Positions 11,794-34,554 of a DNA stretch of 64,000 bases are shown here, in pieces. The notes below the pieces were generated by a model. That model did not search any database. It saw only the letters and a program-made list of their open reading frames with translations, and was not told the DNA's origin. How positions within the stretch are numbered: the stretch's first letter is position 1; each line of letters begins with the position of its first letter. Position numbers and translations under genes: made by a program. Source of the DNA: Escherichia phage GEP101; the sequence record PQ036202; one strand, given 5' to 3'.

Positions 11794-11803
11794 TAAATCC
11801 TAT

Positions 11804-11840: not shown

Positions 11841-11866
11841 TCTTTTAAAAGTATTAAGGAATCACA

Positions 11867-12265: not shown

Positions 12266-12267
12266 AC

Positions 12268-12506
12268 ATGGGTAACACTCTACAGACACCACTAACTGAT
12301 GCTGCTGTAGAGGCAACCTATGAAGAAGCAGACGAGATGAAATTTGTGCTTGCTATTTATGGTATGGAAGGGTGTAAAGAAACACTTGACCAACTCTTTG
12401 CTATGACATTCTCTGATTTATTATCATTGAGACAATTTCTTGAGATTCAGAGGTCGTATAAAGAGGAAATTGCTTACAACGAACTTAGAAGAGCAGGAAA
12501 AATGTA

Positions 12507-12507
<1 letters not shown>
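12268..12507 (+). CDS. tail assembly chaperone frameshift extension (GT-like)
   Basis: 79-aa ORF in -1 frame relative to upstream chaperone, stop overlaps tape measure start. Confidence 0.4.
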
Positions 12508-17891
<5,384 letters not shown>

Positions 17892-17892
<1 letters not shown>

Positions 17893-19361
17893 TGGCAGGA
17901 TTAACTACAACAGGATTACAAACTCTAAGATATCAGGAGATTTTTGATAATATCAAATCAAGGCTTCTTAGAGATATTTCACCAAACCTTGACGTTTCTG
18001 AAGATAGCCAACTAGGTCTCTTCCTAGCTTCAATTGCAAGGTCTTTAGCGGATACTCATGAGATTCTATCAGAAGTCTATGACGGTGGAACAATTGACAA
18101 GGCCGAAGGCTTTAACCTTGATGATATTACAGCTTTAAATGCTGTATATAGATATGTTGCACAGGCAACAAGAGGTCAGGTAGAGTTTACTGGAACAACT
18201 GGTGCTACCATTCCTTCAACAACAAGATTAAGAAGTACTGCCGGAAACATCTTTTATCCAGTTAACAATATTACCCTTACCCCATCATATTGTGTTGAAG
18301 CTGTCCTTGAAGTTAACTCTTTACGAACTGATGCAGATTATGTTATTATTATTGATAACGTCATTTTCTCATATAAACCAACCTCATCAGATACAATCAC
18401 CACACTTCTAACAAAATTAGCAGAAGCTATTAATGGTGGTATTGTAGCAAAGGCAGAAGTCATTAATGATGGAGCAGCATTAAGAATCTATAAAGATGAG
18501 GGTGATATCATTGCAAGAACAAATCCTATGGTTGTCACTGCAACAACGTTTCTGACCTTTACAAAAATTACAACTATTTCAGATGTAGTAGCTGAAGAGG
18601 TAGGTGCTATCCCTGCTTTGGCTGGTACACTTATTGAGATTGAGACAACTGTTGATGGTCTTGACAGTATCTATAACAGGTATGACTTAACAACTGGTAG
18701 AAATGAAGAAACTGACACAGAACTTAGACAGAGGTATTTAGAATCTTTAGCAGTTACTGGTGTAGGGACTTTGGATGCAATTGTAGCTGCTGTTAAAAGA
18801 GTTCAAGGTGTCTCAGATGCTTCAGGTGTTGAAAATGATACTGAAGAGACAAACTCAGAAGGTCTTCCACCAAAATCTTTTAAGATTGTCGTAGTTGGTG
18901 GTCAAAATGATAATGTAGCTCAGGCAATTTGGGATACAAAACCTGCTGGTATTAGAGCTTATGGCTCAATTTTTGGTACAGCCTATGATTTAGGCGGTTT
19001 GGCACATAATATCTATTTTAGCAGACCAACACCAAAATACGCATTTGTTAAGGTCTCTTACTCTCTATATGATGAAGAAAGCTTGACAATCCCTGAAGAG
19101 GATATCAGAGACAGCATTGTACAAGGTATTAATGCCTACGGAAGAACGCTTAAGGTTGGTAATGATGTTATCCCTAACAGAATCTATGGACATATCTATG
19201 ACGTAATTAAAGGTATTGAGATTAATGAAGTCAAGGTGGCGTTATCAAACAGTCAATCAGTCTCACCTAGTGACGGACAATATACTACAGCAAGAATTAC
19301 TGTTGACGGTGACCAATATACTGTTTGGGAAAGTAGCCAGTATACCATCACTAAGGAGTAA
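17892..19361 (+). CDS. baseplate wedge protein (gpJ-like), tentative
   Basis: 489 aa, gene order. Confidence 0.4.
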
Positions 19362-19363
19362 TA

Positions 19364-20218
19364 ATGTTTGAAAAGATTGATAGTGTTTATTACAAAACAC
19401 TTGATGAACGAACTGTAACACAGTTTAAAGACAAGTTTATCTACACAAGTATCTTGAAAGCAATCACTGATGAGTTACAAACATTAGAGGATGTCTGCTG
19501 GCAGATGCACACAGAAAGAAATATTAGGACGTCAGTAGGCCAACAACTTGATAATATTGGCTCACTGATTAAAGTTCCTAGACCTTTAGGTGCTGATGAT
19601 GAAACATATAGAGCTATGCTTTATATCCAAATCTTCCTAAGACGCTCTGACACTACTCCAACATTCTTGCAAAAAGCAATTATGACACTATATGGTGCAA
19701 CTTTCTCTCAGATTTTTGAGCATATTACTCCTAAGACTGGTGGCATCGTTATCCGTATCAACACTAGAAAAAGCGTTCTAGATGCTGCATATACACTGTC
19801 AAAGATTTCTGCAACAACCACTGGTTCTGCTGTTATCTTAAGAGATGTTACTTTAAATGGGACTGCTTGGACACCTGTAGAGGTTGCTGATTCAGCACTT
19901 GCCATTGTTGATGATAAAGAGAACTGGTTCGTAACTGATGCTAACAGGGGTCTGGTCACAAATAACACTGGTGGCTCTCTGGAGTCTAACCTAGTAGGGA
20001 GTCTTGCAGATGCTGGTGTTATTGATGGTTACTTTAAGGTTGACAGAACAGCAAACTCACAGAGTGATGATTATATGAAAGTAGATAGGTCTAATAATAG
20101 CGGATATTTCATCGCTGGTAAAGAAGCTGTTGCAGGTGGTGCATACGGAATCATGGCTGAGGTTGCACAAATTGTCAAAGGCAGAAAAGATAAATCACAA
20201 CAAGAAGGAAATTCTTAA
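19364..20218 (+). CDS. baseplate/tail fibre attachment protein (gpI-like), tentative
   Basis: 284 aa, gene order before tail fibre genes. Confidence 0.35.
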
Positions 20219-20520
20219 TGGCAGTTTTAAATTGGTCTACAAATGAAGTGGATGCTGATGGTAATCAGTTAAAAGTTTTACCACCACCGGAAATTCAAGA
20301 GACAGGTCTTTTAAAGGGTGAGCCTATGGGTAGACAGTGGTTCAACTATATTATCAACTACCTGCTGAATAAAGTAAACGGCACTGTTGGTGAAGTTCGC
20401 TCATACGCAACTGAGCAACCAGATTTAGTGGCTAATGGCTGGAATCTAATTAAGTCTGAGACAGGGACTGCATCAACAAGCACAAGAAACCTTTACACAT
20501 ATGAATATGTAGGAGCTTAA
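20218..20520 (+). CDS. hypothetical protein
   Basis: 100-aa ORF between baseplate and fibre genes. Confidence 0.3.
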
Positions 20521-20522
20521 TA

Positions 20523-21698
20523 ATGGCAGCAGGTGAAATTCAAATTAGTGCCTTGCCACAAGCGGCCTTACCAATTGATTTGAGTGATATCTTCCATCTT
20601 AAGCAAGGTGTTGAGGATAAAAGATGTACGCTTGAACAGTTGTTAGCACCTCACACATCTTTGAGGAATAACCCTCATGGTGTAACTAAATCACAAGTTG
20701 GTCTTGATAATGTTATTAACTCACTCCAATTGGTCGCAGCTAATAACTTGTCAGACATTGTAGATGTTGCTGAGGCAAGAGCAAATCTACAGATTATGTC
20801 GTCAGATGAAGTGAATAACTTAATCCAGCAACATATTGACGACAAAAGTAACCCACACAATACAACGAAAGCACAGGTTGGGTTAAGTAATGTTCAGAAC
20901 TGGACAACATCCAACCTGTACAATGAAGATGCTGATAAGTATGCTACCGCGAGAGCAGTGAATAATCTATACAAAGCTATCCAAGCATCTTATCCAGTAG
21001 GAACTATTCATCTGTCTGTTAATTCTGCTAACCCATCCACTTACCTGCTTTGTGGAGGCACTTGGGAGTTAGTCTCTAAAGGTAGGGCGTTAGTTGGTTA
21101 TGATACAGATTCTCGACCTGTTGGTTCAACGTTTGGTTCTCAGACTGTAGCGTTAACAAATAATAATTTACCAACACATACTCACTCTATCTATTTAACA
21201 GGTGGTGGTCATACACACTCTGCAAGTGTATCTGTCTCCAGTTTTGATTATGGTTCAAGAAGTACATCAACTTTCGATTATGGTACGAAGGCAACCGATG
21301 GTGCTGGTGCTCACGCTCACACGTTTAGTGGTACAACAAGTAATGAGGGTAACCATAACCATAGAGTACCTATGAGGGGTAACGACAGAGGTGGGTCAAA
21401 CGCTATTACTGCATCCGCTGATGCTGGTGTTGGGTATGCTGTGTATACTGATTTGGCTGGTGCTCACACTCATAGCTTCTCAGGCACGACTGCATCATCT
21501 GGTTATCATAGCCATACTGTTGCAATTGGTGCTCACAGCCACACTGTTAATATTGGTTCACATAGTCATACAGGTACTGTTACTGTTTCTAGTTCAGAGC
21601 ATACACACTCAGGAACATCTGGTTCTGTTGGTGGTGGGCAGGCTTTCAGTGTTGAGCAGCCATCTTTTGTAGTATATGTGTGGCAGAGGACAGCTTAA
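20523..21698 (+). CDS. tail fibre protein with fibre repeats and HxH-rich C-terminal domain
   Basis: Repeated NPH..TK.QVGL.NV motifs, multiple H-x-H triplets (HTHS, AHAHTF, AHTHSF, HSHT, AHSHT, HSHT, EHTHS), C-terminus ...YVWQRTA. Confidence 0.6.
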   Translation: MAAGEIQISALPQAALPIDLSDIFHLKQGVEDKRCTLEQLLAPHTSLRNNPHGVTKSQVGLDNVINSLQLVAANNLSDIVDVAEARANLQIMSSDEVNNLIQQHIDDKSNPHNTTKAQVGLSNVQNWTTSNLYNEDADKYATARAVNNLYKAIQASYPVGTIHLSVNSANPSTYLLCGGTWELVSKGRALVGYDTDSRPVGSTFGSQTVALTNNNLPTHTHSIYLTGGGHTHSASVSVSSFDYGSRSTSTFDYGTKATDGAGAHAHTFSGTTSNEGNHNHRVPMRGNDRGGSNAITASADAGVGYAVYTDLAGAHTHSFSGTTASSGYHSHTVAIGAHSHTVNIGSHSHTGTVTVSSSEHTHSGTSGSVGGGQAFSVEQPSFVVYVWQRTA

Positions 21699-21707
21699 TT
21701 TCTTTAC

Positions 21708-21728
21708 AGGGGCTTTATAGCCCCTTTT
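21708..21728 (+). terminator. hairpin with short T-run between the two fibre genes
   Basis: AGGGGCT-TTAT-AGCCCCT followed by TTT. Confidence 0.4.
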
Positions 21729-21744
21729 CAGAGGAAAATTTATA

Positions 21745-24120
21745 ATGGCAGATTACAAATTGAGTCAACTAAACTCAATCGACACAATTCGTTCAGAAGA
21801 CCTATTGCACATCAGAGTTAAGAAAAGACCTGAAATGTTGGGCGATGAAGACCGTAGAATGACCTATCAAGACTTCTTAGCTTCCTTCAAACTAGAAAGG
21901 TTTGTTCAGATTGCTGGGAGTACTATGATTGGGGATTTAGGTATTGTCAAGTTACTTTACGGTGGCAAGGCTGTATTTGACCCAACAGATTCTTCTGAGA
22001 TTACTATTGGGGATATTTTAAAGGCTTTTAAAATTAACTCAAATGGTCTTAAACTCACTATTGCAGATGCTTCAAGGTCGGCAACTGTTTATCATACTTT
22101 GAATAAACCAAGCCCTAATGAACTTGGCATGAGAACTAATGAAGAGAATGATGCAAGATATTCAAGATTGGCTGTAAGTAACACCTTTAGAGAAGCTCAA
22201 ACTATTCTCTCTAATAATGAGACTCTTATTGTTAAAAATATCACAAAAGGTGTAGCACTCTATATTCGCGGTAAAGATGCTGATGGTACTAATAGATGGT
22301 ATCTTGGTAATGACCAAAATGGTACAGATAATTTTGTATTGAAGAATGTAAAAACTGGTGTCTCAATTGCTATGTTAGAAAATTTAGCGTCAGTCAATAG
22401 CACTCTTCAAATCACGGGTCAAGTTCAACCTTCAGATTTCTCTAACTTAGACGCTAGATACTTTACTCAGACAGTTGCTAATCAGAGATTTGCACAGTTA
22501 GCTGCTAATAATACTTTTAGCGGTGAAAATACATTCAGTAAAGCTGTTTCCGTAGTAGCTAATAAAGCTGCTATCATGCTACAGAATAAAGACTTAAATA
22601 GTGAGTTGTTCATCCTAGCAAGAGATAGTGAATACAATAATCTATGGTTTATTGGTAAAGGAGATACCAGTTCTGATATCACATTCTATGATTACAAGGG
22701 TGGTACATCTATTACCTTAAACTCGTCTGGCGCAGTATTTAATAAGAATGTAAAAATCACTGGACAAGTTCAACCTTCTGATTGGACTAACATTGACTCT
22801 AGATATATTCCGGCAGCAACATTAAGTACGATTGCAAGAACTAATGCACAAAATACTTTTAATGGTGTGCAGAAAGTTGTTACGGATAATGAAGCCCTAA
22901 TTGTGAAAAACTCTACTCAGAACAGACCATTGTATATCCGTGGTGTGGACACTGCTAATGTTTCAAGATGGTGGGTAGGTGTTGGTGGGGCAGATACTAA
23001 TGATGTAACCCTAAATAACAGTTTTTCTGGCACTCAGTTAGTTTTAGGTAACTCATCTGCAAGTATCAATAAGACATTATCTCTAGCTGGACAGGTTCAA
23101 CCAAGTGACTGGTCTAACATTGATGCAAGATATTACGGTAAAGCCGAAGCCGATGCGAAGTATATCTGGTCAACATCCAGAGGCGCAGTAAGAGAAGAGG
23201 ATGGTAGCGTAGCTTGGAATCAACCTTCAGGAATCTATACAGAGCTTATCAAGGGTGGTGGTTCGAGCCGTTTAGTATTAAACCTCTTCACGAACGCCTC
23301 AACCTCTACACCATCTGCACAATTGAGATTCGATTACAGAAATGGTGGAATGTGGTACAGAACAGCCAGAGACGCATTTGGTTTTGAGGCTGAATGGTCT
23401 AAGGTTTACACTGAAGCTCAGAAACCAACCCCTTCAGAGATTGGTGCATACACTAAAGCAGAAACTGACCAGAAGATTGCAGAAGCGATTAGTGACTCTA
23501 CAGACCTGAATAAAATCTATCCAGTAGGTATTGTGACGTGGTTTAACAGTAATGTTAACCCTAATACAGCACTTCCTGGGTTAACTTGGACGTACCTGAA
23601 CAATGGTGTTGGTAGAACTATTAGAATTGCAGCAGCTAATGGCTCAGATGTTGCTACAACTGGTGGTTCAGATTCTGTAGCGTTATCTGTTGGTAACTTA
23701 CCTTCACACACGCATAGTTTCTCTGCTACCACTTCGACGTTTGATTATGGCACTAAGTACACAGATGGTCAGGGTGCTCACGACCATGATAGAGGTAATA
23801 TGGAAATTCATGGTGATTTTGGTTTCTTCAGGAGTGACGCATCAAGCTTCTACACTGCTAGTGGGTCTTTTGCTATCTCAGGTTCACAAGCATCTAGGGG
23901 GTACACAGGTAATAACTTCACTTATGGTACTCCTGTTAACTTCTATGCCTCTAGAACTTGGACAGGTAGAACAAGTTGGGTAGGTGCTCATGCACATGGT
24001 GTAGGTATTGGTGCTCACAACCATACGGTAAGTGGTAACACTGGTGTTACAGGTTCTGGTTCAGCATTTAGTGTTACTAACCAGTTCTATAAGCTAATGG
24101 CTTGGGTAAGGACTGCTTAA
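21745..24120 (+). CDS. tail fibre protein with three internal repeats and HxH-rich C-terminal domain
   Basis: Three copies of ...GQVQPSD(F/W)(S/T)N(L/I)D(A/S)RY...; C-terminal SHTHSF, STFDYGTKYTDGQGAHDHD, AHAHGVGIGAHNHT, ending ...AWVRTA, homologous to C-terminus of 20523..21698. Confidence 0.65.
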   Translation: MADYKLSQLNSIDTIRSEDLLHIRVKKRPEMLGDEDRRMTYQDFLASFKLERFVQIAGSTMIGDLGIVKLLYGGKAVFDPTDSSEITIGDILKAFKINSNGLKLTIADASRSATVYHTLNKPSPNELGMRTNEENDARYSRLAVSNTFREAQTILSNNETLIVKNITKGVALYIRGKDADGTNRWYLGNDQNGTDNFVLKNVKTGVSIAMLENLASVNSTLQITGQVQPSDFSNLDARYFTQTVANQRFAQLAANNTFSGENTFSKAVSVVANKAAIMLQNKDLNSELFILARDSEYNNLWFIGKGDTSSDITFYDYKGGTSITLNSSGAVFNKNVKITGQVQPSDWTNIDSRYIPAATLSTIARTNAQNTFNGVQKVVTDNEALIVKNSTQNRPLYIRGVDTANVSRWWVGVGGADTNDVTLNNSFSGTQLVLGNSSASINKTLSLAGQVQPSDWSNIDARYYGKAEADAKYIWSTSRGAVREEDGSVAWNQPSGIYTELIKGGGSSRLVLNLFTNASTSTPSAQLRFDYRNGGMWYRTARDAFGFEAEWSKVYTEAQKPTPSEIGAYTKAETDQKIAEAISDSTDLNKIYPVGIVTWFNSNVNPNTALPGLTWTYLNNGVGRTIRIAAANGSDVATTGGSDSVALSVGNLPSHTHSFSATTSTFDYGTKYTDGQGAHDHDRGNMEIHGDFGFFRSDASSFYTASGSFAISGSQASRGYTGNNFTYGTPVNFYASRTWTGRTSWVGAHAHGVGIGAHNHTVSGNTGVTGSGSAFSVTNQFYKLMAWVRTA

Positions 24121-24199
24121 TCCCTTGTTGACTGATTGTTAAGATGGTGTTAATATTCTTTATGGGTATTCTCACCATCTTGGCTGATGAGGTGATTAA

Positions 24200-24397
24200 A
24201 TGCCTACAATCCTAGCAATTCTTCTAAAAAATCTAGGTAGCTTCTTCTGGAAACTCATTTTATCCCTTCTAAGTGAATACATGATTGAGAAAGTGTTCTT
24301 TAGACTTGCAAGATACCTTGCGAGTAAGACAGACACACCTATTGATGATGAGTTCGTAGATAACTTAGAAAAAGCTTTTAAGGGGGAGAATAAATGA
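24200..24397 (+). CDS. small hydrophobic protein
   Basis: 65 aa with hydrophobic N-terminal segment. Confidence 0.3.
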   Translation: MPTILAILLKNLGSFFWKLILSLLSEYMIEKVFFRLARYLASKTDTPIDDEFVDNLEKAFKGENK

Positions 24398-24765
24398 AGT
24401 GGCTAGAGGAAGCTTTTAAAAATAATATTGGTGCAATTGTAGTTGGTATTTTTAGTGTTATTGGGATGTATACCACCATGCAAGTTTCGGAAGGTAAACA
24501 AGAAGTGTCTATCACAACAAAGTTACAGCAGTTGGATAATTATTCCAAAAGTAATTATTCAGCTATTCGTGATTTACAGTCTGATATGAGGCTGCTTCAG
24601 CTAGGGATGGAGAACCAGAAAGTCCAGTTAGAGAATGTTAAGGGTGAGAACGCAAAACTTACTAAGACTCTTGATAAATTCTCTGATAGTGTGAACAATC
24701 TGGCTCAATCAGTATCAGCCCTCCAAGCTATTACTGAAAAGAACACAAAGAATACTGAAAAGTAA
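24394..24765 (+). CDS. membrane-anchored coiled-coil protein
   Basis: N-terminal TM-like segment IGAIVVGIFSVIGMY then coiled-coil-like sequence. Confidence 0.3.
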   Translation: MKWLEEAFKNNIGAIVVGIFSVIGMYTTMQVSEGKQEVSITTKLQQLDNYSKSNYSAIRDLQSDMRLLQLGMENQKVQLENVKGENAKLTKTLDKFSDSVNNLAQSVSALQAITEKNTKNTEK

Positions 24766-24770
24766 AGTTT

Positions 24771-24798
24771 AAGGCTCCTTTTTACGGGAGCCTTTTTT
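24771..24798. terminator. hairpin terminator between convergent transcription units
   Basis: AAGGCTCC-TTTTTACG-GGAGCCTT followed by TTTTTT on + strand; lies between end of + block and end of thyA on - strand. Confidence 0.5.
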
Positions 24799-24801
24799 GT
24801 T

Positions 24802-25701
24802 TTATTTACCTACTGATAAAGGTGCTTCAATCTTTCCTGCATGTTGGTAATTATTAATACCACCAATAAAATCACTTGCAGTGAGATGTTTTAAGTCACT
24901 TAAAGTATTAAGTGGGATACCAATCTCAAAAGTTGGTGCATGGAACTCTTCATTGTTCATCAGTTCATAAACCTGTTTCATATGGTTCTGATAAATCTGA
25001 GTATCTCCAAAGACACCTATCAAGTACCGTGGAGTGTATCCAGTCATCTTACAAAGAACTTCCAGAATAAAACCATAAGATGCAATATTAAACGGAAGTC
25101 CTAAAAAGGTGTCTACAGAACGTTGATACCATTGTAAGTCAACTTCACCCTCGTTAGTGATATAAATCTGAAACAGAACATGACAAGGTGCTAAAGCCAT
25201 TGAGTTTGCTGCAATATCTGCTGCATTCCAAGCATTAACAAGCATGTAACGGTCTGTGATATCACCCTTCATCTTTGTTACTAAGGTCTCTAACTGGTCT
25301 ACAACACAACCGTTATGGCCTTCAAAGTTTCTCCACTGGACCCCATAGATTCTTCCACCTGCATCCTCTAACCAATCTTGCTCAGAAGAATAATTAGAGC
25401 TTAACCAGCGTTTAAAATCATCTGACCAGATAGTCCAACGTTCTCCGTCATTTTCACCCCAAGTGCGATAACGGAGTTCGCCAAGCTTATTCTCACCATT
25501 CAGGAACCATAAAGCTTCCCCAATAACTTGCCGTGTAAACACCTGTTTAGATGTTAATAGCGGGAAACCAGTTCGCATATCAAAACGAAACTGAGGTGGA
25601 GCAAATGCAGAGATAACATCTCCAGTTCGTGTAGTACGCAGTTCACCAACGGATAAAACATGGTTCAGGATATTTTTGTAACTTGTATCTGCTTGTGACA
25701 T
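24802..25701 (-). CDS. thyA: thymidylate synthase
   Basis: Active-site region ALAPCHVLFQIYI...LQWYQRSVDTFLGLPFNIASYGFIL matches ThyA signature. Confidence 0.85.
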   Translation of the reverse strand: MSQADTSYKNILNHVLSVGELRTTRTGDVISAFAPPQFRFDMRTGFPLLTSKQVFTRQVIGEALWFLNGENKLGELRYRTWGENDGERWTIWSDDFKRWLSSNYSSEQDWLEDAGGRIYGVQWRNFEGHNGCVVDQLETLVTKMKGDITDRYMLVNAWNAADIAANSMALAPCHVLFQIYITNEGEVDLQWYQRSVDTFLGLPFNIASYGFILEVLCKMTGYTPRYLIGVFGDTQIYQNHMKQVYELMNNEEFHAPTFEIGIPLNTLSDLKHLTASDFIGGINNYQHAGKIEAPLSVGK

Positions 25702-25702
25702 A

Positions 25703-26248
25703 TCAAAAGTGTCCTTTTAATTGTGGAACATAAATTTCAAAAGTTGCTTTACCATCCTCTGATGGTTTTGACTGTACCTTTGTAAATACATGGTTATCAT
25801 ACAGCTTCTCAAAGAAGTTTTCAAAAGGTAAATGCACAGTGGCCTCTTCAGTAACTTTATGGAAAACTGTATGGAACACTACATCAGCATACGGTAAAGC
25901 ATTGACAAGGACACCTGCACCACCAATTACAAAGACATCTTCATCAATAGAGCTATCAAGATATTTCAAAAATGCTCCAAATGACTCTTTACTGGCTTTT
26001 GCATACATTACATCATCTTTGCCAAAGTCTATGCCTAAGTATGGTACAGAATTTGTTAAGATTAGGTTTGCACGTTCTGGTAAAGGTTTACTACCCAGAG
26101 TCTTAAAAGTCTCATTCCCCATCACTACTAAGTTGTTTTTAGTGAGTCTCTTAAACTCTTGCATATCCTGTTTATGTCGAGGCCACGGCATACCAGTTGG
26201 AGTACCAAACTCCCCATTTTCACCACTTGCAAAGATTAATTTAATCAT
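25703..26248 (-). CDS. folA: dihydrofolate reductase
   Basis: N-terminus MIKLIFA...GENG..G....MPW resembles DHFR; adjacent to thyA as in T4 frd-td. Confidence 0.8.
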   Translation of the reverse strand: MIKLIFASGENGEFGTPTGMPWPRHKQDMQEFKRLTKNNLVVMGNETFKTLGSKPLPERANLILTNSVPYLGIDFGKDDVMYAKASKESFGAFLKYLDSSIDEDVFVIGGAGVLVNALPYADVVFHTVFHKVTEEATVHLPFENFFEKLYDNHVFTKVQSKPSEDGKATFEIYVPQLKGHF

Positions 26249-26505
26249 TTTGTAAATCCTTTCTTAATGAACCAGTTGATAACATTCTTCACAGCTTTAT
26301 TGCTATGGTAGATTAAGTGTGGTGTAGGTTGGTATGAACCATAAGCCCAGAAAGCAATGATTTCACTACACCCTGTACACCTTGTACTCTCTTCAGCAAT
26401 ATGACCGTTGACTATTTCACTCACCTCACCCTGTAAGTCTGTACATCCACAATGTGGACAACGGATAGGTGCTCCATCAGACTCATAGCAGTGTTCAATT
26501 TTCAT
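26245..26505 (-). CDS. small zinc-ribbon-like protein
   Basis: CPHCGC ... CTGC cysteine pairs in 86-aa ORF. Confidence 0.4.
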   Translation of the reverse strand: MKIEHCYESDGAPIRCPHCGCTDLQGEVSEIVNGHIAEESTRCTGCSEIIAFWAYGSYQPTPHLIYHSNKAVKNVINWFIKKGFTK

Positions 26506-27021
26506 CTATTTAACCTCAAAAACTGGCTCAAGAACCAATATAAAGTCCACACAGTCATCTTCTTCATCCAGAATACCATCAAAGTTCTTAGGAACGAAGT
26601 CGAAGAGGCTCATAACAAAGCAGTCAGAAGTAACCCTAATAGTGCCTCCCATATTCTCTACAGTCAACACTGTACGGCTTTCTTTTACCTCTCTCAAGAG
26701 ATTACTCACAAAGTCATCTAGGAAGTACTTCATTAGTGACTTAAAGCCTTTAGGGTAGTCTGTACCAGAGTATGTTTCAATCTGAGGTACAAGCTTAACA
26801 TTTATGATAGTCTTTGCTAAGAATGTGCTAGAGAACATGCTATCAGGTAGCTTGCAAACAATCTTTCCAGTGCCTTCATGCTCAATCTCAACAAAACCAG
26901 CTTCGTCGCCACATGTAACTATTTTAAAAGATGCTTCATTCTCACACTGTGAAGCCATAAACTTTTTAAGCATCACTTTAAGGAAATCTGCATGAGCATC
27001 TTGTAAGTAGATATCAATCAT
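26506..27021 (-). CDS. hypothetical protein
   Basis: 171-aa ORF in leftward operon. Confidence 0.4.
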   Translation of the reverse strand: MIDIYLQDAHADFLKVMLKKFMASQCENEASFKIVTCGDEAGFVEIEHEGTGKIVCKLPDSMFSSTFLAKTIINVKLVPQIETYSGTDYPKGFKSLMKYFLDDFVSNLLREVKESRTVLTVENMGGTIRVTSDCFVMSLFDFVPKNFDGILDEEDDCVDFILVLEPVFEVK

Positions 27022-27034
27022 AGTTAATCACCTA

Positions 27035-27394
27035 TTATGGGAACAGACACTTGATGTCATCATTTTTGAAAACGAAACTTGTGTAGTTGTGACCATCAAC
27101 ATCCAGCCAAACAGCCTGAACATCTACACCATCAAGATTCTGGTAAAGCTCTTTGATGAAGTGGTCTTTTACAACCTGACTGCTAGTTGTTTCCAGCTTA
27201 ATGTTAGAGATTGCTGAACCTACAGCCATATAACCCATGACACGTTTCTTCTCAGTATGCTTAATCTTACCATCTTTGTAAGCCATAATGAGATTGGAAA
27301 GAATCTTCACACCATAATACTTTTCAAGGTGAGTAGGTACACCATAAAAACCTAATGCAAAGTTTTCAGAGTGGATAATGTTTTCACGTTTCAT
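27035..27394 (-). CDS. hypothetical protein
   Basis: 119-aa ORF in leftward operon. Confidence 0.4.
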   Translation of the reverse strand: MKRENIIHSENFALGFYGVPTHLEKYYGVKILSNLIMAYKDGKIKHTEKKRVMGYMAVGSAISNIKLETTSSQVVKDHFIKELYQNLDGVDVQAVWLDVDGHNYTSFVFKNDDIKCLFP

Positions 27395-27395
27395 A

Positions 27396-27695
27396 TTAAT
27401 CTGCCAGCCTTAAATTAAAATTAACACCAAATTTTTCGCATACCTCCAACATATACTCAAGGGATACATTACCAGTGAGGTGGATTATGTTGGATACACG
27501 AGCCTGAGAGATACCGCAAATTTTAGCAACTTGCTCTTGAGAAAGACCTCTGGATTTAATCTCTCTCTTAAAACGATGTGCAACGAAATCTCTCATTTCG
27601 TCTACATCCATTGGACAAATATAACTCTCCATTTCAGCCTCTCTGTCAGCCTCCCAATCATCTTGTGGAGCATAGGGGTCAAAAACCTCATTCAT
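27396..27695 (-). CDS. XRE-family helix-turn-helix transcriptional regulator
   Basis: LSQEQVAKICGISQARVSNI HTH motif; start taken at internal ATG 27695 to avoid overlap with upstream ORF. Confidence 0.6.
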   Translation of the reverse strand: MNEVFDPYAPQDDWEADREAEMESYICPMDVDEMRDFVAHRFKREIKSRGLSQEQVAKICGISQARVSNIIHLTGNVSLEYMLEVCEKFGVNFNLRLAD

Positions 27696-27900
27696 CTTTC
27701 TTCTTCCGTTTTCGTGAAGTGTCAATCAATGAATCTATGTTTGTAGCCCTAACCTTTTCACGTTCATCATTAAGATAATCATCAAGAGCCTTCTCAATCT
27801 GTGAATCATCTTGACAGATGACTGTAAAGACTGTAAAGCCGTCTGTATCATCAATTATCTTACCATAACCGCTTCTGGGATGTAACTTTTTAAGAGCCAT
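27688..27900 (-). CDS. hypothetical protein
   Basis: 70-aa ORF with basic C-terminus. Confidence 0.35.
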   Translation of the reverse strand: MALKKLHPRSGYGKIIDDTDGFTVFTVICQDDSQIEKALDDYLNDEREKVRATNIDSLIDTSRKRKKKDE

Positions 27901-27901
27901 A

Positions 27902-28285
27902 TCAAATACCTGTGCAGCTTCTGTTTTCTAAGAAATACTCAACACCATACATAGCTTTTTGCATCAAATCTTCTTTAAACTGGATACGATGATTGAGCAT
28001 AGCCTGTACATCAATATCCTCATGGTGCTTCTCTTTAATGTTTGCAGATTGCAGGAAATACTCTGCAAGAACACGATACTGATAGTCAGTTACTTTATCA
28101 GTCATCTCTGTTAAAGACTCTTCAGAGATTGGTTTAAGTAACTCACCATTAGCCAGAGCAACACCTTTAACAATCTGACAAGTATCTTCTGGAACACCTG
28201 ATAAGTCCACATTCGGGAGTTCTGTTGCATTGACTGGTAAATTCATTGCCATAACCATTGCAGCAGCTAATAAAATCTTTTTCAT
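27902..28285 (-). CDS. secreted/periplasmic protein with N-terminal signal peptide
   Basis: MKKILLAAAMVMAMNLPVNA signal-peptide-like N-terminus. Confidence 0.45.
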   Translation of the reverse strand: MKKILLAAAMVMAMNLPVNATELPNVDLSGVPEDTCQIVKGVALANGELLKPISEESLTEMTDKVTDYQYRVLAEYFLQSANIKEKHHEDIDVQAMLNHRIQFKEDLMQKAMYGVEYFLENRSCTGI

Positions 28286-28329
28286 AATGACCCCAAAGTT
28301 ATATTAAATTTTGTATTACATTGAGTATA

Positions 28330-28358
28330 AAAATAAGCTATAACACCTGACTTGTCAA
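28330..28358 (-). promoter_or_regulatory. candidate sigma70-like promoter (TTGACA-N17-TATTTT) for secreted-protein gene
   Basis: Minus-strand TTGACA at 28358..28353, weak -10 at 28335..28330. Confidence 0.3.
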
Positions 28359-28416
28359 CAGACTTTATAGCTTATTTGGCAGATTTTTTATAAGGCTACT
28401 GCCATCCTTCCATACA

Positions 28417-28436
28417 TTACCTTACCTTACCTTACC
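28417..28436. repeat. pentanucleotide tandem repeat (TTACC)x4 on + strand, GGTAA on - strand
   Basis: Direct read: TTACCTTACCTTACCTTACC in 302-bp intergenic region. Confidence 0.6.
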
Positions 28437-28553
28437 AGACCACACCATGCAAAACCAGACTTCACATCACCCGACTGTGCAATACTTCACTTAAAAACCC
28501 TCTTAAAAGACTCTTAAGTGATGCTGGTGAGTACCCGTTGGTTTATGCTGCTC

Positions 28554-28581
28554 AGTATACTCACCAAATTTTCTATGTCAA
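28554..28581 (-). promoter_or_regulatory. candidate sigma70-like promoter (TTGACA-N16-TATACT)
   Basis: Minus-strand TTGACA 28581..28576 and TATACT 28559..28554 just downstream of ligase stop. Confidence 0.35.
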
Positions 28582-28587
28582 CAACTT

Positions 28588-29688
28588 TTATTCATAATCT
28601 CGTATAACTAACCCAACAGGGAACTGTAAAGAACCTTTACGAGTCATCTTCTGGAACTGAACCGTCAAAGGTTTCCCGATAAACTCTTCAGGATGTTCAG
28701 CAAGATACTGTTTCTTCTCATGAGTAGTCTTCCATGAGACATCTACAAAGACGTTAGGAAGAGTCTCTACAACGAACTTGCCATGACCACGTTTATCGGT
28801 CTTTACACCAGTCACTTTAAACTCTTCAGTGTGCATCTTCTTGTGCTTAATCAAGAAGTATGAACGGTGACAACACTCATAGAAGGAGTCTTCAGAGATT
28901 GAACGGTACATTGCACCTTCAAACTGAGCTTCAACCCACTTATCATGGGCTTCATCAAACTCTTCCCAAGAATTTACACGACGAGACTTAACAGGAACAA
29001 CTTTACAGCCATCTCTGAAGTCATTCAATGGTGAAGTCTCAATAATGTCTCTACGCTCAGGCCACGTCTTAGTACTGTCACAAATATCGTACCAGTAGAA
29101 CTGGAGTAGATGTCGGTCTGGATTGTCAGCATTCTTAATCATAGACACAATATCTTCTAAGTCCCAACCATGAGCATAAATCTCACCATCAAAGTCTTCG
29201 ACTTGTGGATGCAATTTAAGCAACAAAAGCAAATCTGGGATTAGTTCTGCTGGGACGTTGTAAATAGTATTCTCACGAGAATAAGCCGTGAAGCTAACTA
29301 AATCAGCATCTCTTGAAATTCTACAACGAACACCATCAAGTTTCGGTTGAGCATCAGCAGGGAACTTCAAATACTTTGCATGACTAACCTTTGCAGCATC
29401 ATGAGCAAGCTGCACACCTACCTTCTCAGTATTCTGTGCAGACTCTTTTGTGTAAGCATAACCTTTGCGTTCAACTTGCTTTTTATACTTAGCAGCAACT
29501 TCAAAGAGAGCTTGCTGTTCAGCGTTACGCTCATTCTTTTTACCGATGTTTTTAGGTTCTGCTGTATACTCTTCAAACATCATCTTGCCATTTTCTTTAC
29601 CGTAGGTTGTAATAACTTTGTCACCTACAGCAACGCATGACCAGACGTTAAAAGAGCCGTCTTTATTTTGTTTGTACAGTATTGTCAT
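28588..29688 (-). CDS. ATP-dependent DNA ligase
   Basis: Adenylation motif KLDGVR (KxDG) and overall T7-like ligase size. Confidence 0.8.
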   Translation of the reverse strand: MTILYKQNKDGSFNVWSCVAVGDKVITTYGKENGKMMFEEYTAEPKNIGKKNERNAEQQALFEVAAKYKKQVERKGYAYTKESAQNTEKVGVQLAHDAAKVSHAKYLKFPADAQPKLDGVRCRISRDADLVSFTAYSRENTIYNVPAELIPDLLLLLKLHPQVEDFDGEIYAHGWDLEDIVSMIKNADNPDRHLLQFYWYDICDSTKTWPERRDIIETSPLNDFRDGCKVVPVKSRRVNSWEEFDEAHDKWVEAQFEGAMYRSISEDSFYECCHRSYFLIKHKKMHTEEFKVTGVKTDKRGHGKFVVETLPNVFVDVSWKTTHEKKQYLAEHPEEFIGKPLTVQFQKMTRKGSLQFPVGLVIRDYE

Positions 29689-29891
29689 TTTCTCTTACCA
29701 CCAATTTCTACGTCAATAACTTGAACATCACCAGCAACATCGAACTTATGGATGATGCTTTCCACAGTGTAAGTCCAACCATCAATGCGAACCAACTCAC
29801 CTTCCCGTGGGACTATTGGATTACGTTGAGCTACGGTTGTAGTGGAGTGAACAACATCATAACAGTAGATATAGTTTACTAGGACTTCCAT
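29685..29891 (-). CDS. hypothetical protein
   Basis: Start moved to internal ATG 29891 with GAGG RBS to remove overlap with lipoprotein gene. Confidence 0.35.
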   Translation of the reverse strand: MEVLVNYIYCYDVVHSTTTVAQRNPIVPREGELVRIDGWTYTVESIIHKFDVAGDVQVIDVEIGGKRK

Positions 29892-29901
29892 CTTGAAAAC
29901 C

Positions 29902-30138
29902 TCACTCAATAACAGTAGTGTGTGATTGACCATTTTTGCCATAGCTATAAGATGTTGTTGTTTGAGAGTTTGGACATCTGACAACAACAATATCTCTGCT
30001 TATGGCATCACCATGTAACTTATAGACTTTGCAATCTTGCATCTCTGGTGGGAGGCTATAAGAAGCATTTTTATCTTCATAAGAAGGGTTGCACCCAGCT
30101 AGAAAAATAACACCAAGTGCAATTACTGCTTTCCACAT
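29902..30138 (-). CDS. small lipoprotein
   Basis: MWKAVIALGVIFLAGC lipobox after ATG 30138 with AGGAGAGG RBS; 78 aa. Confidence 0.5.
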   Translation of the reverse strand: MWKAVIALGVIFLAGCNPSYEDKNASYSLPPEMQDCKVYKLHGDAISRDIVVVRCPNSQTTTSYSYGKNGQSHTTVIE

Positions 30139-30151
30139 AATACCTCTCCTA

Positions 30152-30307
30152 TTACTGTTCACGATGTTCTACTTCTCTGTACGTTCGTCGATAGTATATA
30201 ATAAGCTGTGCTAACTCGTTGCTTTTAACATCTGAACGTAGCAGTTGCCAATCAAAACCTTTACCAACTCTTCCATATAAGCTAAATAATTTTACTTTGC
30301 GTTTCAT
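30152..30307 (-). CDS. small hypothetical protein (51 aa), not in ORF track
   Basis: ATG at 30307 with GGGAG RBS; translation MKRKVKLFSLYGRVGKGFDWQLL... Confidence 0.3.
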   Translation of the reverse strand: MKRKVKLFSLYGRVGKGFDWQLLRSDVKSNELAQLIIYYRRTYREVEHREQ

Positions 30308-30324
30308 TTTGGTACTCCCAATAC

Positions 30325-30552
30325 TCAGAGGCCAATGCTAATACGTTCACCCTTGAGGACTCCTGTACGGTCTCTTGCAATCTTACCGTCAACAATAAGG
30401 ATATGCGCAGACTTTAAAGATTCACTATTAAAACCTTTTACGAACTTACTAGGCATCACCACAATAAGCATCTCTTGAATCAACTCTGGAGTATAGCAAT
30501 TGTCGTGAAGTTGCTGAATAACGTCTGCAAGTGTCATTTTTGATGTCTCCAA
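30325..30552 (-). CDS. hypothetical protein
   Basis: 75-aa ORF. Confidence 0.35.
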   Translation of the reverse strand: METSKMTLADVIQQLHDNCYTPELIQEMLIVVMPSKFVKGFNSESLKSAHILIVDGKIARDRTGVLKGERISIGL

Positions 30553-30743
30553 TACTCAATATCAATAAGTTCTTGTGCAATGCTTTTCAGATTACCTTTC
30601 AAGAAAACCTTCTCAGAACCTGAAAGAGATGAATTGTCAATTAACCTGTTCATTCTCTCAAACAACTTCTGCTTACGATTCTTGATAGTTTCCTTTGAAG
30701 CCCCTTTCATCATTGCTGCATGGGTTCTTCCACGGTGGCTCAT
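30534..30743 (-). CDS. hypothetical protein
   Basis: 69-aa basic ORF. Confidence 0.35.
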   Translation of the reverse strand: MSHRGRTHAAMMKGASKETIKNRKQKLFERMNRLIDNSSLSGSEKVFLKGNLKSIAQELIDIEYWRHQK

Positions 30744-30794
30744 AAGACCTCCTATATAAGATATTGTATAAGGTACTCTTCCCTGAGCACCTTG

Positions 30795-31328
30795 TCAAGA
30801 TAGTTTTGCAAACTCTCCGTGGAGTTTAATAGCAGCTTCACAGTAAGCTTTATGGGCTTCTTCTGGTGTGTCATGATAACCTAAAAACATCTTCTTACCT
30901 TTATAACTTATCTGTGCGACCCACTTACCAGACTTCTTCTTAAGACTTACACCCTTGTACCCAGATTTATTGGTGACTGGTTTACCTTTATTCCAAGCAC
31001 TTTGAAAGTCATCTGCTTCCCTTAAGTTTACAATCCTGTTGTCAAGTGAGTCTCCGTTGATATGGTCAATGATACCTTTTGGCATCTTGCCATACACGTA
31101 AAGCCATGCGAGTCTGTGTGCTTTATGTGCTTTCTTGTCAAAATAGATACTAACCTGTTTATGACCACTTGAATCAGTCTGGATATTACCTGCCACCTTT
31201 CCTGCATAATTACTGTTAAAAACACTAACAGCTCTTGATTTACCTTCTCTACGAAGCCAAGTAAAGACCCCTGTTTCGGGGTCATAGTGCAGCAGCTCCT
31301 TTAAACGTTTTTGTAAAATTAAATCCAT
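30795..31328 (-). CDS. HNH homing endonuclease with AP2-like DNA-binding domain
   Basis: IDHINGDSLDNRIVNLREA HNH motif; YKGVS...KWVAQISYKGKKMFLGYHDTPEEA AP2-like; start 3 nt after DNA polymerase stop. Confidence 0.75.
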   Translation of the reverse strand: MDLILQKRLKELLHYDPETGVFTWLRREGKSRAVSVFNSNYAGKVAGNIQTDSSGHKQVSIYFDKKAHKAHRLAWLYVYGKMPKGIIDHINGDSLDNRIVNLREADDFQSAWNKGKPVTNKSGYKGVSLKKKSGKWVAQISYKGKKMFLGYHDTPEEAHKAYCEAAIKLHGEFAKLS

Positions 31329-31331
31329 TAA

Positions 31332-31888
31332 TCAATGTACCTCATACCAGCTCTTACCAACCTTTGCTGTACCAGTTACAAGTGTTTCTTTCCTCAAACC
31401 TAAGTTTTTTGAAGCTTGTCCATACATCCAGTCAGCAATTGCTTTCATATCATGTGTCATACCCTCTGGACATTCCCAACTATTTTCATCGTGATATGCC
31501 AGAAGTAACCTTGCTCCGATAGCTGGTTTTCGAGCATTCAGTTTTGTCAGGCCATCTTCACAGGCTTTTCTTGCTGCTAGGTTGATGGCCTCATTCTGAA
31601 TCTGTGCTTCCGAACTCATCAGGAGGTAGTTCAGTAGTTTATGTGGAGATTTGCACCATATCCATGCTCCAGCGACCCTGATATAACCACCTTTAGCAAT
31701 TGAAGAGTTCTTCCCAAAAACCTCTTCCAGAGCCTTTTTAGACACCTTAAAATCAGCTTCTAAGCTATCAAGTAACTTCTTAATCTTTGGCAAACGCATA
31801 TAGTAAGTTTGTTTAGTCAATGCACCTTCTTCCGTAGATGATGCCTTGATAGTTTTTGCAAACTTCTCATCGCCAGCCCCGAACAATA
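31332..31888 (-). CDS. DNA polymerase family A, exon 2 (C-terminal, motif B second half and motif C)
   Basis: LFGAGDEKFAK aligns with T7 pol FLYGAGDEK; HDE motif C; no ATG at exon start (ORF track begins at TTG). Confidence 0.75.
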
Positions 31889-32156
31889 CATCTGGTCAAT
31901 ACACTCGCAAGGTGTACCAGTTCTCTTATGAACTTCTCCGCATTTCTACGGAGTGTCGGACTATATCACGTAGCAGTGATGCTACCGTTGCACTTGGGGA
32001 TGGCCATTAGCTTACCACCCTACTCTACTCAGTTCATACATTAAGTATGCTTTTCGATAGTCTCTGAACGTTCCTCTTAAGAGGCTTCGCTGCTGATTAC
32101 CATATCTTTCCAGACTTAGGCTTCCAGCAATTCACAACGTTTTACATGCGCCACTG
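31889..32156 (-). ncRNA. group I self-splicing intron (ORF-less) in DNA polymerase gene
   Basis: Minus-strand P/Q/R/S elements AATTGCTGGAA, AATCAGCAGC, GTTCAGAGACTATCG, GTGATATAGTCCG; IGS GCGCAT pairs exon end ATGCGT with U-G at splice site; terminal G. Confidence 0.8.
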
Positions 32157-34299
32157 ACGCATAAATGCCATTTTTGGCTTTCTTACGACCTTTTGTAATC
32201 TCGTGAAGAAGCTCCTCATCCTGCGTCTCCCTACAACGAACAATATCATCTTCCTTGTTTAGACCAAAGTAAATACTATTCAGTGTATGTGCATCAGTAC
32301 CTGTGTAGACTTCGTAGAGGTCATTCTCAGCATCATAACGAAGATACTTATCAGTTTCTGGATTGAGGTACTTATCGAGATGCTTGCAATAGTATCTTCC
32401 ATCCTCTTGCTTGGTAAATTCTACTGACTCTTTACCTTCAGTTACCGCTTTGGTGAAGTCTTTATCACCCATAAAGTTACACAGTAAAACAAGCTGTGCA
32501 GAGTTCTGGTCAACTGAAACGATATTAGTCCCTTCCTCGCAAATCCACACCTCCCTCATAGGTGCTCCATAGACAGCAGCACCAGACGGTACGTTTACAA
32601 TACCATATTGTGTCATACGTCCAGTTGAAGTACCAAATACCATTGCACCGGCACTAAGGCGACCATCAGGGCGAATCTGGTTCAACCAACCTTTTTCATC
32701 ATCCTTTGAGTTCTCAATAGTTCTACGTCGGTGCATCAAAGTGTAGTATTTCGCAATCTTCTGTCCAAGCTCACCTTCAATCGTATCATAAGATGATTCA
32801 GTAAGTTTTGGTGAAGTACGGATTAAGCAAGGCTCAAGCAAATCTGTGTACTTCTTCACAGACCAGTTATGCTCAATGTACTGGACACCTTCATGTTCAA
32901 CATAACTCAAACCACACCGTTCCACCATCTCATCCCACTTAGGATGCTTTGTAATCATCTTTTTGTTGTCTTTGAAACGACAAACTTTGACAGGACGACC
33001 GTCAGAGTCTTTCTTGTAGTTCCAGTCATCTGGAATCCAACCAACTGATTTCAAGTAGTCTTTAACAACTGCTACCTGAGTCATACGAGAAACTTCGAAC
33101 TCAATTGGTGTATATGGTGCATCAATCAAACCTGTGTAGCGACTTGACTCAAGCTCAAAGTGGTTAACGACATGGCTGTTATAGTACTTCACAGTTTTAA
33201 CTGTTTTTACTGGCTTCCAGTCTTTGCACTTCTTACCAATCTTTGCATTCAACTCATTGCAAATTGCACGAGCATCCTTCATTGCTACAAAACCTTCCTT
33301 GTACTCTTCACCAGTTACAGAGTTGGTTGGTGTATAGCAATTCCGCTTTTCAATGTTAAAAATCTTTGTAGTTGGCTTACCAAATGGCTTGATTTCATAT
33401 GTCTGCATCTCACCGTTACGTACCTGTTGACGATACTTTGTCTTAGGGTACTTGGTAATTCTTTTCAGTCCATCTGCATGACCAAATGCTTCAACATACT
33501 CATTCCAAGCTTTTGCAAACTCTTCTCCAGTGACTTTACCTTTGGTCTTAATAGTTGGAGGAAGATGTGGTTCAACTTCTGAAGCAAGCTCATTAGTCAA
33601 CTTGTCAAGTTCCTTTACATGAAACTCCATAAGCTCTTTATCAGCTTTCCAACCATTGATAGCCTGTTGACTCATCCAGAAAGATGTTTCTTTAGCTCGC
33701 ATGTAAGTCTCATAAGTGTCTATACCACACTTCTTAAGCTTGAGATACTCGTTATCAAGTGCCCGTTTAGTTTTGGCGTTGATACGGATATCTTCCACAA
33801 CACGAGTGAAGATTTCTGCATTCCACACACCCCAATGTTCAATCTCTGGTTTACGGACACCAACACGAGCACCCCATGCTGCCAAGCCATGAGCACCTTT
33901 ATAGCCCTTTGGAGTTGGTCTATCCATCCACTGAACACGAGACTGGATAAGAGAATCCTGAAAGAAATTACTCCACGGCTTACACTTTGGATTATCAAAG
34001 TTCCACAAATCAGGTGCAATGTGGTTGAAAACCCACCAGTCATAACCGAGACCGTTATGGATGCAAAGACGTTTTGCCTTTAACGCAAACTCAACACCTT
34101 CACGCAAACCACCCTTAATGTACTTGGTGTACTTGTGACCGAGGATAGGCTCATCTGTAAAGACCCATACAGGTGGCTCTTCATCGTCAGATTTATAGTC
34201 TGCGAAAGCCATGACGTGTACTTTAGTGAACTCAAGGAGTAAACCATCAGTTTCTGTATCACCAACTAAGTGTAAGTTTTTAAAATCTACGTTTTCCAT
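32157..34299 (-). CDS. DNA polymerase family A, exon 1 (3-5 exonuclease and polymerase motif A, first half of motif B)
   Basis: GDTETDGL exo motif (cf. Pol I DTETDSL), DQNSAQLVLL motif A-like, RKKAKNGIYA start of motif B; start at ATG 34299 with GAGGGA RBS. Confidence 0.8.
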
Positions 34300-34554
34300 T
34301 TCTACTCCCTCTAAATCATTAACCACATACATTACTGCAAAAAATTATAAAAAGCAAGTTGACAATGTACTTGACAAGGTGTTAATCTTTGCGAAGTGGG
34401 TTTTTACTTAAAAGGTTACTTAACAGTTTAACTATACAGATACTTTAAAACTCTTAAAAGATTATTTAATAGCTTTTAAAAGTTTTAAAGTATAACGTAT
34501 AGAATACGTTAAGATAAAAGATTAAAACTTAATAGTTACTTAAAAGAGGCTTAC

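Follow-up and report, generated by a model that had tools for sequence, protein, structure and literature searches.

Two conserved genes for predicted exported proteins among the replication genes of the Felix O1-like Escherichia phage GEP101

The window analysed is a stretch of 64,000 nucleotides from Escherichia phage GEP101 (sequence record PQ036202), and two of its minus-strand genes are described here, one for a 127-amino-acid (aa) protein with a predicted signal peptide (the secreted protein) and one for a 78-aa lipoprotein precursor. A first-pass annotation, made from the sequence alone, had placed an open reading frame (ORF) with a signal peptide at 27902..28285 and one with a lipobox at 29902..30138, without stating a strand, and both were found exactly there on the minus strand. 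Export signals are conserved in both families and both genes are under purifying selection, with ratios of nonsynonymous to synonymous substitution (dN/dS) well below 1, so both ORFs are confirmed as real genes, far beyond chance.

The two genes and their products

The 127-aa product starts with MKKILLAAAMVMAMNLPVNA, after which the predicted cut leaves a mature protein that begins with TELPNV. Its N-terminus reads MKK, ILLAAAMVMAM, and NLPVNA followed by TE, that is, a basic n-region, an 11-residue hydrophobic core, and Val and Ala at -3 and -1, which is the n-h-c signal peptide with small residues at -3/-1 of a Sec substrate cleaved by signal peptidase I. The A-x-A-type cleavage site was kept in 31 of 31 homologues (VNA, AVA, ASA, AYA, and AAA), down to 30-35% identity. 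Cys16 and Cys104 (mature numbering) and a GEL-x-KP loop were invariant in the same alignment. The protein matched phrog_4332 with an E value of 5e-67, and a single residue separates it from Felix O1 ORF87 (Felix01p159). Library scans gave no Pfam or NCBIfam match for it, and scans of both proteins and their neighbours with Pfam, NCBIfam, and PADLOC gave nothing significant. Using tblastn, homologues were found in 258 phage records, which belong to the Ounavirinae by name except for a few labelled Campylobacter or Staphylococcus phage (with Felixounavirus-level identity), and a profile search of 5.8 billion proteins returned only 32 clusters, of 124-127 residues, on contigs of up to about 90 kb. 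On these searches the 127-aa protein is an orphan family, apparently confined to the Ounavirinae.

The mature product was modelled using AlphaFold2 with the alignment from the 32-cluster search, at a predicted local distance difference test score (pLDDT) of 93.9 and a predicted template modelling score of 0.85. The model has three long antiparallel helices (residues 11-25, 35-67, and 73-101); helix 1 carries Cys16, and Cys104 is close to the C-terminus. Pairwise Nei-Gojobori comparisons with five Felixounavirus genomes gave dN/dS values of 0.02-0.08 for this gene and 0.04-0.26 for the lipoprotein gene, which resemble those of neighbouring genes. The secreted protein is 96-100% conserved inside Felixounavirus. 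Its identity between GEP101 and phage Moogle is 33%, the lowest among the window ORFs with a Moogle match (tail fibre, 46%; ligase, 87%; putative holin, 93%), and such high conservation within a genus together with 33% between genera fits a partner that differs between phage lineages. In Felix O1, ORF87 was among the ORFs with maximal expression at 25 min by reverse transcription PCR (RT-PCR), along with the ligase and polymerase genes (PMC3185647). In the CRISPRi-ART knockdown screen of phage SUSP1, the ORF87 homologue AVU07_agp037 was scored 'Not Fit' with a fitness of -0.76 (PMC11879866 supplement), which suggests that the gene is dispensable. Shigella phage vB_SflM_004 was considered as a natural recombinant, in which the signal peptide is of the Felix type and the mature protein of the Moogle type, and was discarded as a fragmented mixture of two phages. 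Its record (MK295205.1) looks like a co-assembly of a Felixounavirus and a Mooglevirus, in which rIIA/rIIB occur twice, many genes are truncated, and the lipoprotein has three matches. The record is unfit for comparative inference.

The 78-aa product starts with MWKAVIALGVIFLAG, after which the predicted cut leaves CNPSY at the new N-terminus. Its first residues are MWK, AVIALGVIF, and LAG-C16 with Asn at +2, and thus comprise the basic n-region, the hydrophobic h-region, and the lipobox ([LVI][ASTVI][GAS]C within the first ~35 residues) of a lipoprotein precursor. Under the enterobacterial +2 rule, Asn at +2 predicts Lol-dependent sorting to the outer membrane, and the 78-aa lipoprotein is accordingly predicted to reside there. 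With a PROSITE-style rule, the lipobox was found in 141 of 148 family representatives, the misses being mostly truncated or mis-started sequences, and in a search of all ORFs of at least 40 aa on both strands the gene was the sole credible lipobox ORF in the window. A strong Shine-Dalgarno sequence, AGGAGAGG, precedes the ATG at 30138, which favours the 78-aa start over a GTG at 30162; the 86-aa form starting at that GTG was rejected for GEP101, and is apparently the form used by Felix O1 itself. Cys-to-Tyr and frameshifted variants of the lipoprotein occur. In some GenBank records a TTG-started ORF of 101 aa (29685..29990, minus strand) overlaps the 3' end of the lipoprotein gene; it is an over-extension of the 67-aa gene, which starts at the ATG at 29888 and matches phrog_4427 over its full length. 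The over-extended ORF accounts for phage bumzen, where the lipoprotein gene is present at 96% identity and is unannotated.

The lipoprotein matched phrog_902 (E value 3.7e-17, residues 1-76), which is also matched by members from Aeromonas, Acinetobacter, and Vibrio phages. A word-indexed search gave 14 close clusters only. The profile built from these was then scanned against 1.84 billion representatives using HMMER, which gave at least 682 clusters (defined at 50% identity) at E ≤ 1e-3, 114 of them at E ≤ 1e-10; the best 150 of the 682 have 61-137 residues, most of them 75-100. Across 41 diverse relatives C16, C36, and C55 were invariant, and the motifs shared by the family are the lipobox, Y-x-LP-x-EL-x-DCK, VVRCPNS-x-TTT, and G-K, with an extra C-G-K-N-C pair in about a fifth of the members. 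A tblastn search of GenBank phages gave 585 records with a match, about 197 of them with a copy at ≥60% identity. Beyond Felixounavirus and Mooglevirus the matches include 114-kb Vibrio Demerecviridae, a 124-kb Aeromonas phage, Acinetobacter Saclayvirus, a T4-like Pseudomonas phage, and 350-kb Asteriusvirus-type jumbo phages of E. coli, Yersinia, and Erwinia, so that the family spans myo-, sipho-, and podoviruses. All of the GenBank matches are labelled hypothetical or are unannotated; no function was given in the records examined, and no study of the family was found in the searchable literature. Precomputed, unmarked Pfam hits to DUF4884 (PF16225) at E ≤ 1e-5 were present on two homologues of the lipoprotein and on 12 further close homologues. 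DUF4884 is annotated on Bacteroides proteins too (PMC8931616), and occurs in the searchable literature as a label only. Judged by its profile matches, the lipoprotein is a member of a catalogued family without an assigned function.

In every other lineage examined (Aeromonas, Acinetobacter, T5-like Vibrio, T4-like Pseudomonas, and Asteriusvirus) the lipoprotein gene is one of a series of small genes, early or accessory; it lies near an NAD-dependent ligase gene in the Vibrio phage and directly after rIIA-rIIB-dam in the Pseudomonas phage. No conserved partner gene was found beside it across these five lineages and two metagenomic ones. In one metagenomic lineage the gene belongs to a cluster rich in counter-defence genes, whose other products include a PARP-like protein of 1,210 aa, RlaP, a Tad2-like protein, and NAMPT/NAPRTase. 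A strict degenerate pattern for VVRCPNS-x-TTT had one copy in 185,579 species-representative bacterial genomes and was found on 23 viral contigs, most of them 81-90 kb as in the Ounavirinae. The single bacterial copy is in Hylemonella gracilis (NZ_AEGR01000062.1; 4568..4846 of the extracted region, plus strand), in an island with a truncated comM-like Mg-chelatase gene, a helix-turn-helix gene, and a gene for an ABC-3C CTD10 protein.

The two genes are independent rather than a pair, because phages SUSP1 and SUSP2 hold one without the other. Both keep the secreted protein at the same position. In the lipoprotein slot, between the 67-aa and 75-aa genes, both encode a protein of 70 aa that is unrelated and lacks a signal peptide, and no lipoprotein was detected in that slot by tblastn. 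The record counts also differ (about 197 with the lipoprotein at ≥60% identity and 258 with the secreted protein). The swapped slot and the frameshifted or Cys-lost variants are consistent with the lipoprotein gene being a dispensable accessory gene.

Genome setting and promoter region

The window was assigned to Felixounavirus. Using megablast, 259 phage records were retrieved with positions 27000..31000 and 308 with positions 1..25000, nearly all of them Felixounavirus or related Ounavirinae at 90-97% identity. Table 1 lists the features. In the order of transcription, the minus-strand block first encodes DNA polymerase, an HNH endonuclease, three small genes, the lipoprotein, the 67-aa gene, and DNA ligase; after a gap of 300 bp follow the secreted protein, a 70-aa gene, the Cro/CI-like regulator, three hypothetical genes, dihydrofolate reductase, and thymidylate synthase. 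GEP101 also carries rIIA/rIIB. Both genes therefore lie in a block for replication and nucleotide metabolism, as the first-pass annotation had it. Its further description of them as away from structural and lysis genes holds in part: the block begins about 40 bp past the tail-fibre and putative holin genes, and genes for lysis occur at scattered places in phages of this group.

Table 1 Features of the window that bear on the two genes
Feature	Position	Strand	Basis or remark
Secreted-protein gene, 127 aa (Felix O1 ORF87 / Felix01p159, phrog_4332)	27902..28285	-	ORF and translation
Predicted signal peptide, residues 1-20 of the 127-aa protein	28226..28285	-	Sequence
Mature 107-aa part of the 127-aa protein	27905..28225	-	Predicted VNA cleavage
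Lipoprotein precursor gene, 78 aa (Felix O1 ORF91, phrog_902)	29902..30138	-	ORF and translation
Predicted signal peptide, residues 1-15 of the 78-aa lipoprotein	30094..30138	-	
Predicted lipid-modified Cys16 of the 78-aa lipoprotein	30091..30093	-	
Mature 63-residue lipoprotein domain	29905..30093	-	
Shine-Dalgarno sequence of the lipoprotein gene	30143..30150	-	Read from sequence; 4 nt upstream of the ATG
Sigma-70-like promoter, TTGACA-17-TATTTT	28330..28358	-	10/12 scan match; about 45 nt upstream of the secreted-protein gene
Second sigma-70-like match, TTGACA-16-TATACT	28554..28581	-	11/12 scan match, consensus only; directly past the ligase stop codon
Perfect 13-bp inverted repeat, AAATAAGCTATAA / TTATAGCTTATTT	28331..28343 / 28365..28377		Arms 21 nt apart; brackets the -35 box
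Cro/CI-like regulator gene	27396..27725		In the minus-strand block, two genes downstream of the secreted-protein gene
Minus-strand block	24802..34332	-	
Structural genes	Up to the tail fibre	+	
Tail fibre gene	21745..24120	+	
Putative holin gene, 123 aa	24394..24765	+	
Nucleotide-metabolism genes	From the minus-strand block to the window end	+	
Polynucleotide kinase gene	62476..63171		In the window

The ~110 bp upstream of the secreted-protein start (28286..28400) had a mean identity of 92% across Felixounavirus, Moogle, and SUSP2, compared with 33% between genera for the coding sequence downstream. The 13-bp inverted repeat in this region was conserved in eight of eight aligned phages. Folded as RNA, it was not significantly better than shuffled sequence (z = -1.2), and it is a candidate operator for the Cro/CI-like regulator or a candidate weak terminator. 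The whole gap between the ligase and secreted-protein genes (28286..28587) is an insertion hot spot and contains a short repeat of the CCTTA type. It is ~300 bp long in GEP101 and Felix O1, holds two extra genes (about 146 and 195 aa) in Moogle, SUSP1/2, bumzen, and DaR-2019b, and holds a 48-aa ORF in Bas63.

Elsewhere in the block, a group I intron (31936..32219, minus strand; Rfam RF00028, 62.1 bits against a gathering score of 50, E value 2e-15) splits the DNA polymerase gene into exons at roughly 32116..34332 and 31332..31886, which are contiguous in Moogle; a single uninterrupted polymerase gene is annotated in Felix O1 and Bas63. The HNH endonuclease gene (30795..31328) is the next one after the polymerase gene.

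Candidate roles and alternatives

Both genes are, with reasonable probability, non-essential accessory genes whose products act on the envelope in a protective or excluding capacity, rather than in replication or canonical lysis. In the proposed mechanism, a virulent myophage of the Felix O1 type would carry two unrelated accessory genes, inherited independently of each other, and each would send a small disulfide-containing protein to the host envelope. The 127-aa product, whose gene would stand first after a host-type promoter and share its operon with the gene for the Cro/CI-like regulator, would be exported by Sec, cleaved after VNA, and folded in the periplasm into a three-helix bundle stapled by a predicted Cys16-Cys104 disulfide, and it would act on something that differs between phage genera. 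The lipoprotein, held at the inner leaflet of the outer membrane, would present a beta-rich domain of ~60 residues with one conserved disulfide and would act on something conserved across Proteobacteria. Both proteins would protect the infected cell or the progeny, or would exclude competing phages. The main candidate roles are an exclusion of later phages that acts once these have adsorbed and a conditioning of the infected cell's envelope, and superinfection exclusion in a wider sense, as the first-pass annotation had suggested, is possible for either gene.

Several points weigh against this interpretation. The localisation and function of both proteins are inferred. The structure model of the lipoprotein was weak (beta-rich, pLDDT 63), and fold searches with the models of both proteins gave generic matches only, so that no target can be named for either. 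A local hmmscan of the lipoprotein and 41 relatives did not reproduce DUF4884 (no PF16225). ORF91 is absent from the Felix O1 RT-PCR table (PMC3185647), which leaves the lipoprotein without direct expression evidence. In the CRISPRi-ART screen DNA ligase was likewise 'Not Fit' and false negatives were reported by the authors (PMC11879866), and for these reasons the dispensability of the secreted protein is only suggested.

A narrower proposal is superinfection exclusion after adsorption, in which the secreted protein, the lipoprotein, or both would work from the periplasm and keep later phages from passing the cell wall or delivering their DNA, like T4 Spackle or P1 Sim; this is possible but less likely than not. 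The secreted protein is Spackle-like in outline, combining a signal peptide, a small helical periplasmic fold, and a conserved cysteine pair (PMC7677548). The 'Not Fit' score of the SUSP1 knockdown, with the dispensability it suggests (PMC11879866), also speaks for such a role, as does the position of the protein as the most diverged syntenic orthologue (33%) with strong conservation within the genus, which fits a lineage-specific partner. Against it, no lysozyme domain turned up when nine tape-measure and baseplate proteins, the hub among them, and the putative holin were scanned with Pfam; the hub had no Pfam match of any kind. Nothing specific on exclusion, lipoproteins, or transcriptomes in Felix O1-like phages was found in the searchable literature, which likewise held no exclusion report for phages of this type. 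A broader proposal is considered doubtful, namely that DUF4884/phrog_902 would be a widespread, receptor-independent envelope system of virulent phages, with a target that is conserved across Proteobacteria, such as LptDE, BAM, Tol-Pal, or a peptidoglycan enzyme, and the three-helix protein a separate, lineage-specific periplasmic exclusion factor.

A lysis role, with the secreted protein as a periplasmic antiholin like T4 RI, the lipoprotein as an accessory outer-membrane lysis factor, or both, is improbable. For an antiholin, it can be said that lysis genes are scattered in this phage group (PMC4319497), that rIIA/rIIB are present, and that the putative holin has one N-terminal transmembrane segment followed by a coiled C-terminal domain of ~90 residues that is possibly periplasmic. 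The holin assignment is itself putative, and its product is 93% identical to that of Moogle compared with 33% for the secreted protein; the two do not co-diverge, which argues against the secreted protein binding a near-invariant putative holin. T4 RI has an uncleaved signal-anchor-release domain, unlike the secreted protein with its conserved A-x-A cleavage site. In the region 24200..24765 (plus strand), the topology of the putative holin resembles that of an i-spanin, and the 65-aa gene before it encodes a product that is hydrophobic at its N-terminus; both are >90% identical to Moogle.

On the side of the lipoprotein, one family member weakly matches Rz-like spanin PHROGs (E ~7e-4), but these matches fall mainly on the signal-peptide region. 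No membrane protein that could be its partner is encoded next to the lipoprotein, prolines make up only 4 of its 63 mature residues, and a dedicated overlapping spanin pair is found elsewhere in the genome. In the Moogle annotation, made by a group that curates lysis genes, an overlapping i-/o-spanin pair lies beside the polynucleotide kinase gene and the lipoprotein homologue, gp40, is hypothetical. In GEP101 the start of an i-spanin gene, encoding an N-terminal transmembrane segment followed by a coiled periplasmic domain, was found at 63699..64000 (plus strand), running off the end of the window, and the overlapping o-spanin must lie directly beyond. Because the spanin pair starts at 63699, the o-spanin is not this lipoprotein, in agreement with the first-pass annotation, which had thought that role less likely. 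The lipoprotein was also tried as an o-spanin with its own neighbours and rejected, the translations of the flanking 51-aa and 67-aa genes having no hydrophobic transmembrane stretch.

Receptor masking was the role for which the first-pass annotation had invoked T5 Llp, and the analogy does not hold. A masker of the Llp/Cor/Rtp45 type would bind the periplasmic face of the outer-membrane protein that serves the phage as receptor and block adsorption of further phages and of progeny to debris. In overall design the lipoprotein resembles Llp, both being small lipoproteins whose mature domain of ~61-63 residues contains a disulfide (a predicted one in the phrog_902 lipoprotein), and it comes from a non-late gene block of a virulent phage. 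The likeness ends at the signal peptide: hhalign of the family against Llp aligned residues 1-17 only. Llp was not found at E ≤ 10 when the family profile was searched against PDB sequences, although its sequence is in that library (8A60_B and 7QJF_A); the search gave chance matches only (E 0.3-0.9, at the signal-peptide end), and the presence of the Rtp45 entry 9RPS in the library was unchecked. From these comparisons it is concluded that the lipoprotein is probably not a member of the Llp family. The genes of Llp, Rtp45, and the Drexlerviridae exclusion lipoproteins stand beside receptor-binding-protein genes, and their products act on the cognate outer-membrane protein (PMC9586334; PMC12685063; PMC8594841), whereas the GEP101 lipoprotein gene is located in the interval from the polymerase gene to the ligase gene, and ~6 kb separate it from the tail fibre gene. 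For phages of the Felix O1 type, the reported receptor is lipopolysaccharide (LPS) and not a protein (PMC8594841). The same motif occurs in myo-, sipho-, and podoviruses of Vibrio, Acinetobacter, Pseudomonas, and Aeromonas, which is hard to square with a receptor-specific binder and makes a conserved envelope component the more likely target, if there is one. Receptor-specific masking by the lipoprotein is therefore unlikely and is given less credence still than a lysis role.

That both ORFs are chance frames, or encode cytoplasmic proteins with signal-like N-termini, is next to impossible: protein-level support is indirect and some GenBank records, such as that of bumzen, leave the lipoprotein gene unannotated, but the low dN/dS of both genes, orthologues in >190 (lipoprotein) and 258 (secreted protein) phage records, a lipobox cysteine and an A-x-A site that persist at 30-40% identity, the transcription of ORF87 in Felix O1 (PMC3185647), and the over-extended neighbour behind the bumzen gap leave this alternative effectively refuted by the conservation data.

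Comparison with known systems

Virulent phages are known to alter the envelope of a cell that they infect through small exported proteins such as Llp, Rtp45, Spackle, and Imm, and these can decide phage-phage competition and the outcome of phage cocktails. Phage-encoded exported accessory proteins are thus an already known kind, and the breadth and sharp conservation of the lipoprotein family make it a reasonable experimental target. Phages with a member of the family include some that serve, or have been put forward, as biocontrol agents for Salmonella, E. coli, Vibrio, and Acinetobacter. If the broader proposal for DUF4884/phrog_902 is true, a 60-residue disulfide-locked domain under the outer membrane would harden the infected cell against competing phages or premature envelope failure. 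A conserved Gram-negative envelope target would be of general interest; at present the two genes are a well-defined candidate pair rather than a discovery.

Among the known systems, o-spanins of the lambda Rz1 type are likewise small outer-membrane lipoproteins of phages with Gram-negative hosts, whereas the phrog_902 lipoprotein has no adjacent i-spanin, is predicted to be beta-rich, and is not proline-rich. T4 Spackle (gp61.3) resembles the secreted protein as a small helical periplasmic protein with a signal peptide and cysteines, from a virulent myophage and dispensable for growth. It differs in that no sequence or fold match links the two, the 127-aa family is restricted to the Ounavirinae, and no tail lysozyme domain was found in the GEP101 baseplate proteins scanned. 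T5 Llp (PDB 8A60 and 7QJF) and the lipoprotein are both precursors of 77-78 aa from virulent phages, with mature domains of ~61-63 residues that contain a disulfide (predicted for the phrog_902 lipoprotein) and a predicted location at the periplasmic face of the outer membrane. Llp is encoded next to the receptor-binding-protein gene of a phage that uses FhuA, whereas the phrog_902 gene of GEP101 has no such neighbour, the group of GEP101 uses LPS, and phrog_902 lipoproteins occur in phages that use a wide variety of receptors. Rtp45 and the Drexlerviridae lipoproteins, which bind LptDE or other outer-membrane proteins, co-vary with and adjoin receptor-binding-protein genes, unlike the phrog_902 gene with its lack of a fixed neighbour; they too are phage-encoded periplasmic lipoproteins with a disulfide, acting on outer-membrane machinery from inside (PMC12685063).

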